The notes under the pieces were generated by a model that saw only the letters and a list, made by a program, of their open reading frames with translations, had not been told where the DNA came from and searched no databases. 64,000 bases of DNA from Sphaerodactylus townsendi (lineage: Eukaryota), in the NCBI RefSeq assembly GCF_021028975.2, contig NC_059439.1, forward strand, positions 30,380,001 through 30,444,000, in the 5' to 3' direction. This document shows, in pieces, positions 33,131 to 39,100 of the stretch (position 1 is the stretch's first letter; the number at the start of each line of letters is the position of its first letter). The position numbers and the translations under genes were made by a program.

Positions 33131-36100
33131 ATGGCGGCAGCGGCGGCGACAGCGGCCCCGGGTGGGGCAGGGCCCGTGCCAGTACCCGGAGCTCCGAGGC
33201 TGGGAGTGGAGACGGTGAAGGGGCAAGTTTTTGATGTGGGGCCGCGCTACACGGATCTCCAGTACATCGGCGAAGGGGCGTACGGCATGGTCTGGTGAGT
33301 GAGCGCGAACGGCCCGACGTGGCCCTTCCCCCTTGCCGTACCGAGCCAAAAAGCTGAGGTCTGCTGAGTGGCTGACGTTCCCCGCAGATCGGGTTCTCGC
33401 TTTAACTGTATCCTCTTAAGTCGACTTCCGCCATATTGTTTCCTAGTTACCGATGTCCCCCCCCCCCCACCCTCGTGCTTGTCTTCTACCAATACTGGCC
33501 CCGGCATTTGGAGACCCTCGACATTGGTTCCTAGCTCCCGCGTTTCCCCACCGACCAGCGAGATTCCCCCTTTCACGCCTTTGCGCTCGCAGAGCCCCTT
33601 TGCTGCGGATTTGCAGCGAGATTCCCTTCCCCACTCCTTGCACTCGCAGTGTCCCTTCGCTGCAGATTCGCCCGCCGGCAGGTGCTGCCTTCCAGGTGGC
33701 TTTGCAACCCAGAGACACGCCCGAGCCCTGCCCGGGCACCGTGGTGTTGCCAGCCCCTCCCACTGCTTGGCTCTCGCTGTGCTTCTGTGCCAGTGTCTGC
33801 CATGCTCCTTGCTAGCAGCCTCTGACTGGCGTTGCGCCAGCCTCAAGGTGTCAGCAAGCGCTTTGTGCGCCTTCAGCTTTTCCAGTGACAGGCTTAGAGG
33901 CTGGAGCTCTCTTCTTCTGAGCGCTGCAGCCGTGGCTGGAGAAGGGATGCTGGACGAACTGCTTGCCACAAGGCTGTTTAGCAGCACGGGAGTCCTGCTG
34001 AGTCAGGAACTGGTTTAAAGCATATCCTTTATTGAGGGATGGAAGAGGCTGCAAAGCACCCCGCAGCGAGCGTTTTTGCATCTGCACGTTGAAAACTGCA
34101 GAAACTGTACACCACGTTCTGTGTTATTGCCCCCTTCATAACCAGGCCAGAACAAAGTTATTCTCAACCTTATTGATGGGCTCAGAGTGCTGGACAGACT
34201 AGCAGAAGACTGTTTATCTGTTAAACAACGAATCCAGGGATGCTCTAGAGCAGTGGTGGCGAACCTTTTCGAGACCGAGTGCCCAAATTGCAACCCCAAA
34301 CCCACTTATTTATCGCAAAGTGCCAACATGGCAATTTAACCTGAATGCTGAGGTTTTAGTTTAGAAAAAACATTTGGCTCCAAGGCACATGTTACTCAGG
34401 AGTAAGCTTGGTGGTAGTCAGTGGCTTTGCTTTGAAGCAACTGTGCAACGCTTCAAACAGGTGAATCACGACCCTAGGAGGGTTTACTCAGAAGCAAGCC
34501 TCATTGCCAGCAACCGAGCTTACTCAGGTAAAGAGATCACGCTTTAGTTCTTCCCATGAAAATCAGTGGGGTTTAACAGCACTTAACAGGGTTACCTACA
34601 CTGCCTTCCCCAAAACTAGGTCTTAGGTTTAGTGCTAATAATCTCCCTGAAATAATTGCACTATTATCACATGACGAACTCTGTGCCCACAGAGAGGGCT
34701 CTGAGTGCCACCTCTGGCACCCGTGCCATAGGTTCGCCGCCCCTGCTCTAGAGCAAACGGCCAGGTTTTTATGCACAGTCTTGTTGAAGAGTGGCTTTAA
34801 TAGGTTGGTATGAAAGGAACAAAAGAAAATACGTATACACAGGTCATCGTATAAGGACAGAGCCTACCCAAATATGGGATTTTATAAAACCTCCCAGATA
34901 AAATCGCTGATGGCAGAACATGACATCTGGTGAGAGAAAACACTCTACGTTGGTTGGGAACATTCAGAGGATACTAGGAGGCCAGTTGGTTTAGACCAGG
35001 GGTAGGGAACCTGCGGCTCTCCAGATGTCCAGGAACTACAATTCCCATCAGCCTCTGTCAGCATGGCCAATTGGCCACCTCTGCTTTCACCTCCAATTGG
35101 CCATGCTGGTAGGGGCTGATGGGAATTGTAGTTCCTGGACATCTGGAGAGCCGCAGGTTCCCTACCCCTGGTGTAGATGTAAAAGTCTCCCCAGATTAAA
35201 GGGGAAGGAAGACTTATTTGCTGCAACAGAGATTTTGGAGTCCAGTATCAATGAGTCTATATTTTATACAGTTTGAAGACCGTCCTTTGCCGATAACACG
35301 GCCAGTAAATCAAGCCGTGAGCCTGTTGATGTAACTTTTTGCTCAGTACGTGCAAACCGCACATAGCTTTAAAAAGGGGCTTGGACAGATTTATGGAGGA
35401 GAAGTCGATCTCTGGCTACCCATCTTGATCCTCCTTGATCTGAGATTGCAAATGCCTTAGCAGACCAGGGTGTGCTTTCGGGGGGGAGCAGCAGCGCCAG
35501 AAGACATTGCTTTTCTCCTCCTGCATGTGAGCTCCCAAAGGCACCTGGTGGGCCACTGCGAGTAGCTTGAGGAGCTGGACTAAGATGGACTCTGGTCTGA
35601 TCCAGCAGGCTTGTTCTTATGTTCTTAAGGCCATTGCTTTCACCTCCTGCATGTGAGCTCCCAAAGGCACCTGGTGGGCCACTGCGAGTAGCAGAGGGCT
35701 GGACTAGATGGACTCTGGTCTGATCCAGCAGGCTAGTTCTTATGTTCTTAAGGCCATTGCTTTCACCTCCTGCCTGTGAGCTCCCAAAGGCACCTGGTGG
35801 GCCACTGCGAGTAGCAGAGGGCCTGGACTAAGATGGACTCTGGTCTGATCCAGCAGGCTAGTTCTTCTTATGTTCTTAAAGGCCATTAGCACCACATCCT
35901 GCATGTGAGAGCTCTCAAAGAGCACCTGGTGGGCCACTCGCGAGGTAGCAGAGGGCTGGACTAGATGGACTCTGGTCTGATCCAGCAGGCTAGTTCTTAT
36001 GTTCTTAAGGCGGTTGCTTTCACATCCCTGCATGTAGAGCTCCCAAAGGCACCTGGTGGAGCCACTCTTGCAGAGAGGCTGGACTAGATGGACTCTGGTC

Positions 36101-39100
36101 TGATCCAGCAGGCTCTTTCTTGTGTTCTTAAAGGCCATTGCTTTCACATCCTGCATGTGAGCTCCCAAAGAGCACCTGGTGGGCCACTGCGGTAGCAGAG
36201 GGCTGGACTAGATGGACTCTGGTCTGATCCAGCTGAGCTTGTTCTTATTGCTTATGTTCTTAAAGGCCATTGCTTTCACATCCTGCATGTGAGCTCTTAA
36301 AAAAGGCACCTGGTGGGCCACTACTTGAGAGTAGCAGAGGGGCTGGACTAGATGGACTCTGGTCTGATCCAGCTGGCTTGTTCTTATGTTCTTAAGGCCA
36401 TTGCTTTCACATCCTGCATGTGAGAGCTCTCCAAAGAGCACCTGGTGGAGCCACTTTCTTGAGTAGCAGAGGGCTGGACTACAGATGGACTCTGGGTCTG
36501 ATCCAGCTGGCTGTTGCTTATGTTCTTAAGGCCATTGCTTTCACATCCTGCATGTGAGCTCTCAAAGGCACCTGGTGGGCCACTAGAGTAGCAGAGAGGC
36601 TGAAGACTAGATGGACTCTGGTCTGATCCAGCAGGCTAGTTCTTATGTTCTTAAGGCCATTGCTTTCATCCCATGTGAGCTCTCAAAAGGCACCTGGTGG
36701 GCCACTCACGGTAGAGGAGCTGGACTAGATGGACTCTGGTCTGATCCAGCAGGCTAGTTCTTATGTTCTTAAGGCCATTGCTTTCACCTCCTGCATGTGA
36801 GCTCCCAAAGGCACCTGGTGGGCCACTGTGAGTGACAGAGAGCTGGACCTAGATGGACTCTGGTCTGATCCAGCAGAGCTAGTTCTTGCTTATGTTCTTA
36901 AGGCCATTGCTTCTCACATCCTGCATGTGAGTAGGCTCTCAAAGGAAGCACCTGGTGGGCCACTCATGCGGTAGCAGAGGGCTTGGACTAGATGGACTCT
37001 TGGTCTGATCCAGCAGGCTAGATTCTTATGTTCTTAAGGCCATTGCTTTCACTCATCCTGCATGTGTGAGCTCCCAAAAAAGGCACCTGGTGGAGCCACC
37101 AAGTAGGCAGTAGCAGAGTGGGCTGGACTAGGATGGACTCTGGTCTGATCCAGCAGGCCTAGTTCTTATGTTCTTAAGGCCATTGCTTTCACATCCCTGC
37201 ATGTGAGGCTCTCCAAAGGCACCTGAGTGGGCCACCTCCTGCGAGTAGCATGAGGGCTGGACTAGATGGACTCTTGGTCTGATCCAGCAGGCTAGTTCTT
37301 ATGTTCTTAAGGCTAACATTGCTTTCTGCTACATCCTGCATGTGAGGCTCCCAAAGGCACCTGGGTGGAGCCACTGCAGTAGCAGAGGGCTGGACTAGAT
37401 GGACTCTGGTCTGATCCAGCAGGCCTTTCTTATGTTCTTAAGGGGCCATTGCTTCTTTCACCTCCTGCCTGTGAGAGCTCCCAAAGGCAATTCCTGGTGG
37501 GCCACTCAGAGTAGCAGAGGGGCTGGGACTAGATGGACTCCTGGTACTGATCCAGCAGGCTAGTTCTTATGTTCTTAAGGCCATTGCTTTCACATCCTGC
37601 ATGTGAGCTCCCAAAGGCACCTGGTGGGCCACTGCGAGTAGCAGAGGGCTGGACTAGATGGACTCTGGTCTGATCCAGCAGGCTAGTTCTTATGTTCTTA
37701 AGGCCATTGCTTTCACATCCTGCATGTGAGCTCCCAAAGGCACCTGGTGGGCCACTGCGAGTAGCAGAGGGCTGGACTAGATGGACTCTGGTCTGATCCA
37801 GCAGGCTTGTTCTTATGTTCTTAAGGCCATTGCTTTCACCTCCTGCATGTGAGCTCCCAAAGGCACCTGGTGGGCCACTGCGAGTAGCAGAGGGCTGGAC
37901 TAGATGGACTCTGGTCTGATCCAGCAGGCTAGTTCTTATGTTCTTAAGGCCATTGCTTTCACATCCTGCATGTGAGCTCCCAAAGGCACCTGGTGGGCCA
38001 CTGCGAGTAGCAGAGGGCTGGACTAGATGGACTCTGGTCTGATCCAGCTGGCTTGTTCTTATGTTCTTAAGGCCATTGCTTTCACATCCTGCATGTGAGC
38101 TCCCAAAGGCACCTGGTGGGCCACTGCGAGTAGCAGAGGGCTGGACTAGATGGACTCTGGTCTGATCCAGCAGGCTAGTTCTTATGTTCTTAAGGCCATT
38201 GCTTTCACATCCTGCATGTGAGCTCCCAAAGGCACCTGGTGGGCCACTGCGAGTAGCAGAGGGCTGGACTAGATGGACTCTGGTCTGATCCAGCTAGCTT
38301 GTTCTTATGTTCTTAACCAGTCTGAGGACTGGGTCTCAAACAGCAGTTGGTAGGTAAGACGGGCAGGATCAAAGTTGAAAAGATTGCTGTCCGCCTTCCT
38401 TCTGCAGGCAGCGGCCACAGAGAAAAGAAAATTGTAACTGGCAGGTGGTATAGAAAGGAAGAGAGACGGGCCTTCAAGTTCGTTGTTCATTTGGGGCCTT
38501 AAAAGAAATGCACCTAATTAGTAAAGATGGAACTTTTCATGGCCAGAATAATCTGGCTGGTGTGGGGTTGCCGGGTTTTGTGGTTGTGCTACCACATCCA
38601 CACAGCCTGGGAAACCCACAGCAGCCAAAAGATAGAACCATTCATTTAAAAGCTTTGACACCTGTGACATTTACACTCTCAGTCCTCTCGTACCAAAGAC
38701 TACACACCCATTTTTTTTAGGATCATTTCACGCTAGGGTTTTGCACTCCTGTTACACACCTCAAGGGTTTTTGTGGGTGCATTGCTTTGGACCTCTGTAG
38801 GTTTCACACCAGGCAAAGCATTTGCCCAACTCACGATAGTCTGTGTCAGATAACTGGGCCTCATGCATAGCTATGACTGTACCATATTGCTCATACCCTG
38901 AGCCTGCCATTTGCCCCGCCTTTCCTTAAGTCGTTATCTTATCGGCTGAATTCTGAAATTCAGTGTTCTGTCGGAGCTGTCTCTAATTTACCATTATGAG
39001 CAGAAAAAGTGCTTTGTTCAATTGTGAGCCAAGGGCAAAAAGGTATTTGGGAATTAGATTTTAAAAAACGATGGGAATTATGAAAGGAGAACTCAAAGTG

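Follow-up and report, generated by a model that had tools for sequence, protein, structure and literature searches.

A 123-bp tandem array in an intron of a gecko ERK gene is derived from the 3′ end of a CR1-type LINE and likely belongs to a widespread repeat family

Introduction

Satellites derived from SINEs are known from squamates, among them sSat3Gja1 and sSat3Ppi1 of geckos (PMC10702118). In both, a retroelement leader precedes tandem units, about 130–143 nt long, that cover the 3′ part of the element, and squamate satellites of this type occupy many loci per genome, with few to hundreds of units and a copy number that varies between relatives (PMC10702118). Tandem repeats from LINE 3′ ends are described for chicken HinfI (SCR1) and the CR1-C centromeric repeats, both from CR1, and for the cetacean common satellite, which stems from the 3′ end of L1 (PMC9659126, PMC6947457). 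In Drosophila, tandems of jockey, DMRT1B and R1 link an intact 3′ end with an internal site in the same family of elements; for these non-LTR tandems, double or nested insertion has been proposed as the origin and unequal exchange as the means of expansion (PMC5932611). Dispersed short satellite-like arrays of oysters have been explained by mobile carriers, the Helentrons (PMC7492417). The conversion of dispersed transposons into satellites, and the arrival of satellites at new loci, remain questions in the field.

The array described here lies in a stretch of 64,000 nucleotides from Sphaerodactylus townsendi (NC_059439.1; hereafter the window). It works like a squamate SINE-derived satellite but is not one. 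A leader and 22 assembled units are present, where such satellites have a leader and at least four inner units; as for their many loci with subtelomeric bias, many joints were counted in a relative, by a count that carries no positions. The squamate satellites derive from tRNA-related SINEs, whereas the array here stems directly from a LINE, as its leader contains ORF2 codons and its tail is an octomer. Since the leader encodes LINE ORF2 and the tail differs from that of Squam3, which has an L2-like end and TAAA or CTT tails (PMC7983390), the monomer does not come from a Squam1, Squam2 or Squam3 SINE. HinfI comprises partial ORF2 plus 3′ UTR, whereas the monomer here is confined to the terminal 123 bp of the 3′ UTR; in contrast to HinfI, CR1-C and the cetacean satellite, the array is intronic and still joined to its parent leader. 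The joints of jockey and DMRT1B are given as many or few, at low or intermediate population frequency (PMC5932611), whereas here the copies of one joint are estimated at thousands, and the joint contains no target-site duplication. The carrier of the oyster arrays is a DNA transposon (PMC7492417), that of the present array would be a LINE, with its own end as the monomer. A CR1-tail repeat of 123 bp in lizards was not found in the literature searched, which lay mostly outside subscription journals and repeat databases.

Results

Anatomy of the array

Behind a 5′-truncated CR1-type LINE end (35363–35504), the assembly shows 22 copies of the element's last 123 bp, up to position 38315, where the right end of the array coincides with the tail of the element. 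Tandem Repeats Finder (TRF) reported the array at 35505–38316 with period 123, 22.0 copies and a score of 4000, and 22 tail ends were counted in the assembled array, the first at 35627 and the last at 38315. The first-pass annotation had claimed a 22-fold amplification of a CR1 end starting at ∼35362, which is borne out with a leader from 35363, the count being that of the assembly. All parts lie on the plus strand. The leader (35363–35504) comprises the last 21 ORF2 codons and the upstream 3′ UTR and continues into unit 1 (35505–35627), which is rich in indels. Unit 2 (35628–35750) is clean and 123 bp long, units 3–16 (35751–37577) measure 118–140 bp each and carry private, insertion-biased indels that are likely residual long-read error, and units 17–22 (37578–38315) are again clean 123-bp copies, ending at the element's tail with an octomer-type microsatellite (38302–38315; 1.75 copies of TTCTTATG). 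The exact period claimed for the clean units holds in all seven of them. CTTAAG, expected at most junctions, occurs 18 times for 21 junctions; of the 1–2 nt of junction microhomology proposed, 1 nt was found at the joint. The monomer is arranged head to tail and homologous to part of a transposable element dispersed in the same genome, which makes the locus a TE-derived tandem repeat.

In sense orientation, as had been claimed, this LINE-tail-derived array takes up about half of intron 1 (5.9 kb) in an ERK1/2 gene. Exon 1 (33131–33294, plus strand; ATG at 33131, GT donor at 33295) was recognized by sequence, kinase motif scan and splice context, and exon 2 (39168–39350, plus strand, end approximate) by kinase motif scan, MAPK match and splice context. 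The naming of the host as MAPK3 fared less well than its assignment to an ERK1/2 gene: the exon 3 piece is nearly tied (MAPK3 108.1 versus MAPK1 107.5 bits), and the exon 2 piece favors MAPK1 (104.9 versus 91.9 bits for MAPK3). The upstream neighbor is a divergent coronin-like gene (WD40_4 and WD40 matches), and it is by this neighbor, given the synteny of CORO1A and MAPK3, that the host may be MAPK3. The 22 reverse transcriptase (RT) recognition modules that the pre-mRNA would carry follow only from orientation and assembled copy number. Neither a host function of the array nor an effect on ERK is indicated; for the host gene, the array probably offers a marker that varies in length.

The parent LINE and its terminal hairpin

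A solo, 5′-truncated copy of the same LINE lies at 45377–45768 on the plus strand. Its last 123 bp (45646–45768) equal the array unit, as the first-pass annotation had stated: the seven clean units differ from it by 4–7 substitutions and no gaps. Leader plus unit 1 are 87% identical to positions 45512–45768 of the solo copy. The ORF2 stop codon of the leader lies at 35426–35428, and the codons before it match the C-terminus of an RT protein (P0003; 14/18 identical, E = 3e-8), to which a 49-aa piece of the solo copy is 76% identical. P0003 carries an RVT_1 domain (E = 1e-38) and has chordate RT look-alikes; judged by these sequence matches, the parent ORF2 is continuous with a LINE reverse transcriptase. 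At its 5′ end, the locus is truncated inside ORF2, and no clear target-site duplication was seen at the flanks of leader and array. By its ORF2 C-terminus and the octomer tail, the parent is putatively CR1, no named CR1 or L2 reference being among the matches. The tail 8-mer (TTCTTATG) resembles the terminal octomer of bird CR1, ATTCTRTG or TTCTGTGA (PMC2612034), without matching this consensus, which is avian.

A terminal stem-loop is predicted at 38140–38171 (plus strand) for unit 21 and at the same position in the other units, and it also forms in the predicted fold of the solo 3′ UTR. A 61-nt piece containing it folds with z = −2.2, that of the whole unit being about 0 (0.01). This predicted hairpin corresponds to the 3′-terminal stem-loop of the CR1 clade. 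The claim that the unit contains both stem-loop and terminal microsatellite stands for the predicted terminal hairpin and the octomer tail, but of a longer hairpin predicted in the 3′ UTR the unit holds the 3′ arm only, the unit start adjoining the apical loop. Unusual RNA stability was rejected for both the monomer (z = 0.01) and the trimer (z = +1.02), and, by eye, the joint misfits the donor and acceptor positions in the unit that back-splicing would use.

Unit variation and assembly quality

Only 7 of the 22 units (2 and 17–22) are free of indels, a point on which the earlier annotation was silent. Compared with unit 21, units 3–16 together show 126 inserted and 21 deleted letters as well as 34 substitutions, and the indels of the 15 other units likely reflect unpolished long-read error. 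Because these units look erroneous and no read or contig was seen to cross the whole array, the count of 22 is not firm. The share of array words found in reads was 0.51, compared with a ceiling of about 0.55–0.6 if the words of the noisy units are absent.

The clean units differ by 1.8 nt on average in pairwise comparison. Their recurrently variable sites (17, 103 and 108) are all family-wide polymorphisms (post hoc p = 7e-5), and all seven have G at position 70, a letter seen in at most 2.2% of family reads. The terminal unit has the tail haplotype T103, A104, T108, backed by contigs of runs X11 and X1, and most inner units have A103 and A108; T103 also occurs in inner units 20 and 6–8, the latter being neighbors, and units 3 and 16 have two variants in common. 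Since the combination A103 and T108 of unit 18 looks rare in family read frequencies, unit haplotypes may partly be polishing mosaics. Contigs of X11 and X1 match the right boundary, including a rare private variant, without differences, but their reach into the tail is no more than 28 letters, short of the 31 that the bridging rule demands.

The tail-to-head joint in relatives

Unit 22 and 785 bp of right flank were compared with reads or contigs of 4 of 18 listed runs, about 12 runs with low word share or added rows being left out. The exact joint, from 38315 back 123 to 38193, was present in all four runs compared, which carry four species labels. In one relative (F), 2,297 raw reads (1053 + 1244) contain it, with 242 start places, at most 75 letters on the short side and a near-even strand balance (46%); in the three contig sets, the short side has only 19–24 letters. 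With a single-copy flank depth of about 1.3, which rests on about 5 reads, this corresponds to roughly 1,500–5,000 joints per haploid genome over the assumptions tried, an estimate for the relative and not for the window's own species. Family tails in F number about 33,000–84,000; the assembled window array has 21 joints. Thousands of joints could sit in few large blocks.

Among the back-to-38193 rows listed, 2,297 of 2,490 reads show one exact joint without extra letters. A second joint, one letter longer, is backed by 71 reads and also occurs in contigs of X11 and X15, and other tail-to-internal joints among the best 15 of 205 rows are single contigs near single-copy depth only. Reads with the array's G70 (or another letter) provide a depth of only 1,199 in F, which falls short of the number implied by the joint reads; many units of F that bear the joint therefore differ from the window array. 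In another relative (G), one contig contains the joint, and 344 of the 754 letters of record 20 align, stopping at 38315. G is probably without insertion at this site, which depends on the orientation of the record; the contig might also simply begin there.

The abundance of the joint in one relative makes a purely local origin unlikely. The search for the joint elsewhere yielded the many identical joints that speak against a single local duplication, but the proposed branch of reiterative reverse transcription or circular RNA is not thereby shown. Recurrence driven by microhomology was rejected as the chief cause: at least 1 nt is available at 62 of 236 positions, and the three with 3–4 nt are unamplified. 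Inverted joints (38193/38222–38233) are left out of the count, being probable library artefacts from fold-back at the predicted long hairpin; reads of the main one were 87% one-sided by mate direction (1004 versus 155). Neither the exact joint (metagenome and viral contigs) nor the hairpin core (metagenome, prokaryote-genome and viral contigs) had matches in these collections, which are not expected to contain reptile DNA.

Discussion

Rather than a one-off, the array is likely a member of a widespread repeat family that derives from a transposon and is of a known kind. Our preferred reading, with a probability of about 0.45, is that the joint formed once, that a tandem-tailed CR1 was copied to many loci and that arrays were lengthened locally. 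The tail-to-internal dimer would have arisen a single time, for example by a CR1 inserting in the 3′ UTR of another. Because every unit ends in stem-loop and octomer tail, a transcript could be primed at any tail and would be inserted with its joint, yielding 5′-truncated copies of leader plus units; the carrier would be ordinary retrotransposition of tandem-tailed source elements. Recombination between units would then lengthen arrays and mix family variants; unequal exchange or slippage likely brought the present array to about 22 units. Truncation inside ORF2 and the exact tail end make the locus look like a retrotransposed copy, and the rarity of rival joints, together with the unamplified microhomologies of 3–4 nt, fits one amplified founder. 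Neither a second locus nor a source element with ORFs and a tandem tail was seen among the sequences examined, which counts against this explanation. Because the monomer is the LINE's own priming module, it is conceivable, if doubtful, that the satellite is self-mobilising, the CR1 RT writing multimers into new sites via multimeric transcripts or jumps between 123-nt tail RNAs.

A high joint count is equally expected if few large satellite blocks hold most joints and a plain truncated CR1 at this site gained its array by homologous recombination, for example with an extrachromosomal circle. The terminal unit, unlike most inner ones at T103, A104 and T108, looks as a resident tail would, and Rsp-like repeats spread into existing repeats and are abundant on eccDNA (PMC7403614). 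However, T103 is not confined to the end, and G seems to be without any CR1 here, hence no plain-CR1 intermediate is seen; we consider such seeding rather unlikely. Quite improbable is reiterative reverse transcription, in which the CR1 enzyme would jump from one 123-nt tail RNA to the 3′ end of another, or roll round a circular one, and so write the whole array as a single insertion, finishing on a longer template. The order fits target-primed synthesis, with the units made first and the leader last, the units mix family tail haplotypes, the one-letter-longer second joint exists, the apical loop adjoining the unit start may be a cut site, and template jumping of non-LTR RTs is described in vitro (PMC8857657). 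Yet jumping is reported to need non-templated addition, and it may not be physiologically needed (PMC8857657), and nearly all listed reads of the joint lack extra letters; that the clean units have G70 in common, which is rare in the family, speaks against their being drawn independently from the family pool. A single founder that was later amplified accounts at least equally well for one invariant joint with 1 nt of microhomology.

That one duplication occurred here, followed by unequal exchange, with the joints of the relatives coming from this locus or its descendants, appears very improbable, despite the similarity of the clean units, their shared rare variant and the variants common to units 6–8 and to units 3 and 16, by which local exchange probably occurred. 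It would require an array of about 180–600 kb in the intron of F (joint count × 123 bp), G carries the joint while probably lacking the insertion, and the variable sites coincide with family polymorphisms. Least probable is that the array is for the most part an artefact of assembly, with misplaced reads having inflated a short array or a single copy. Error-like sequence in 15 of 22 units is in its favor, and no spanning read was seen in a comparison that covered the right boundary only; but that boundary, with its rare private variant, was matched exactly in two runs, the joint is present in independent short-read data, and the error-rich units differ mutually, as expected of unpolished long reads over a real array.

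A repeat family that is young and abundant, has one diagnostic joint and keeps the priming signal in its monomer would allow RNA- and DNA-based spread to be separated with existing long-read genomes, and the probable presence/absence difference among close relatives adds to its value for this. Were the satellite self-mobilising, retrotransposition and the spread of satellites would be directly linked in a vertebrate, and arrays in introns could serve the enzyme as sources or decoys. An open frame on the minus strand of the array (37529–38293) was taken as a by-product of the period, 123 being 3 × 41.

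Anatomy of the array and its host gene

The array spanned 35505-38316 (period 123, 22.0 copies; TRF), and splitting it at the tail, the 3′ end of the LINE, yielded 22 unit ends from 35627 to 38315, which agrees, for the assembled sequence, with the 22 units counted in the first-pass annotation. Directly upstream lay a 142-bp leader, a 5′-truncated piece of the LINE, starting at 35363 (previously placed at ∼35362). Leader and unit 1 together were 87% identical to 45512-45768 of a solo copy, a single-tail relative of the same LINE (45377-45768), the last 123 bp of which correspond to the array unit, as had been claimed. 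The leader contained the final ORF2 codons, whose product matches the end of P0003, a LINE reverse transcriptase with an RVT_1 domain, at 14 of 18 positions, and every unit terminated in a predicted stem-loop plus tail. The parent is putatively CR1-like, judging by its octomer-type tail (compare PMC2612034). Short inverted repeats in both insertion flanks (35350-35362, 4-bp arms; 38317-38332, 6-bp arms) are probably due to chance. One of a family of self-inverted elements (120-190 bp) lay just left of the array (34992-35177).

The array resides on the same strand as its host, in intron 1 (33295-39167) of an ERK1/2 gene. MAPK3, as had been proposed, and MAPK1 were not separated by sequence alone. 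A coronin-like gene nearby, divergent from the ERK gene (coronin-type WD40 exons at 15199-15693 and 20438-20869, minus strand), favors MAPK3, presuming conserved CORO1A-MAPK3 synteny. A C2H2 zinc-finger piece lay close to the window start (2398-2787, plus strand).

Only 7 of the 22 units were free of indels (mean difference among them, 1.8 nt). Across units 3-16, 126 letters were inserted, 21 deleted and 34 substituted, and the 75 insertion and 14 deletion events in units 2-22 were mainly private to single units; outside the array, the most similar pairs of dispersed repeats in the window differed chiefly by substitution (for example, 15 mismatches and no gaps in 299 bp). In the best public run, 0.51 of the sampled words of the stretch were present, close to the 0.55-0.6 that would be reached were the noisy words spurious; as this run also had holes in the flank, the indication is indirect. 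We read the noise in the middle of the array as probable long-read error left unpolished, the underlying array being real, and 22 as the apparent copy number of the assembled sequence.

The joint in public reads

Data from 4 of the 18 listed runs were aligned to 38193-39100 (one unit plus flank), and the exact tail-to-head joint (38315→38193) was present in all four. In the raw reads of organism F, 2,297 reads crossed the joint, beginning at 242 positions and with 46% in one mate direction; a further 71 had a joint one letter longer, and 122 clipped at 38294. Unique-flank depth averaged 1.3, from ∼5 reads; from this depth and assumed genome sizes, 1,500-5,000 joints and 33,000-84,000 family tails per haploid genome were estimated, a head following ∼6-11% of tail ends. 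The junction search proposed in the first-pass annotation, applied to these data, gave many identical joints. The three contig sets had it on one or two contigs each (short side 19-24 letters). Contigs of organisms E and A matched the right array boundary without difference, including a rare A at 38296, although they enter the tail by 28 letters only and either run may derive from the sample used for the assembly. Another contig, of 754 letters and from organism G, aligned over 38315-38658 only, which we read as a probable empty site at this locus, provided that the record is oriented as assumed. In the right flank, 38534-38657 is a second, lower-copy repeat fragment (depth raised in all four runs).

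The recurrently variable sites among clean units (17, 103 and 108) are family-wide polymorphisms (32%, 45% and 44%); thus, one founder with fresh mutations does not account for the units. Yet all seven clean units had in common a G at position 70, a letter found in no more than 2.2% of the family reads of organism F. Residual depth there (1,199) fell short of the number of joints, so that in F many units with the joint must belong to another type. Some unit haplotype mosaics could arise from polishing.

Proposed origin and spread of the array

Junctions had been credited with 1-2 nt of microhomology; 1 nt was found, and better microhomologies nearby were not the amplified ones, which, together with the invariance of the joint, points to one founder joint. 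Of the two routes suggested earlier, local expansion alone is unlikely given the joint counts. Reiterative reverse transcription laying down the array fits the order of leader and units and the mixing of unit variants, but accounts poorly for exact joints (compare PMC8857657) and for the shared rare variant at position 70, and we consider it unlikely. We tentatively prefer (probability roughly 0.45) a model in which tandem-tailed elements spread by retrotransposition and arrays grew locally afterwards, since the locus has the form expected of a retrotransposed insertion and all units end in a predicted stem-loop plus tail. The joint would have formed once, for example as a dimer of the tail-to-internal type described from Drosophila (PMC5932611), tandem-tailed elements would have been carried to further loci, and arrays would have lengthened after insertion. 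Recognition of 3′ ends by LINE enzymes is supported in general (PMC3747384); a bolder reading, that the LINE's own enzyme moved this satellite, is less likely than not. A further route, in which large blocks seeded the locus through recombination or eccDNA (PMC7403614), would fit the joint counts equally and the distinct terminal-unit haplotype in part, and appears rather unlikely.

The array is a real and probably young outlying member of a tandem family that derives from a LINE tail and is abundant. It is built in the manner of squamate SINE-derived satellites, among which those of geckos include units of 130-143 nt spanning the element's 3′ part (PMC10702118), but its parent is a LINE; it works like such a satellite without being one. 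LINE-3′-derived repeats are known from chicken and whales (PMC9659126 and PMC6947457), and no account of this 123-bp family was found in the literature searched, the coverage of which was incomplete.

Other repeats in the window

In the CR1 3′ UTR (45617-45693), a long hairpin was predicted (z −2.25; 194-nt fold) with its apex at the unit start; more than 1,300 raw reads showed strand-switch joints at the matching site, biased by mate direction. The ORF2 frame of the solo copy shifts at small insertions (45525-45545), which could reflect either mutation or errors remaining in the assembly. Just before this copy ends the second of two copies of a SINE-like repeat (∼290 bp) sharing a further 280 bp downstream (18529-19102 and 44802-45361; 90% over 573 bp); this downstream part, with few substitutions and no gaps, possibly reflects 3′ transduction, a composite element or local duplication. 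A ∼290-bp dispersed repeat, presumably Sauria-SINE-like, occurred in ∼20 copies of two subtypes (e.g., 3133-3446, 5938-6244, 12495-12801, 23547-23846, 30780-31078 and 56794-57096). Distinct from the 123-bp array, a tandem repeat with a 51-bp period, in 3.9 copies with 97% matches, was located at 51673-51873.
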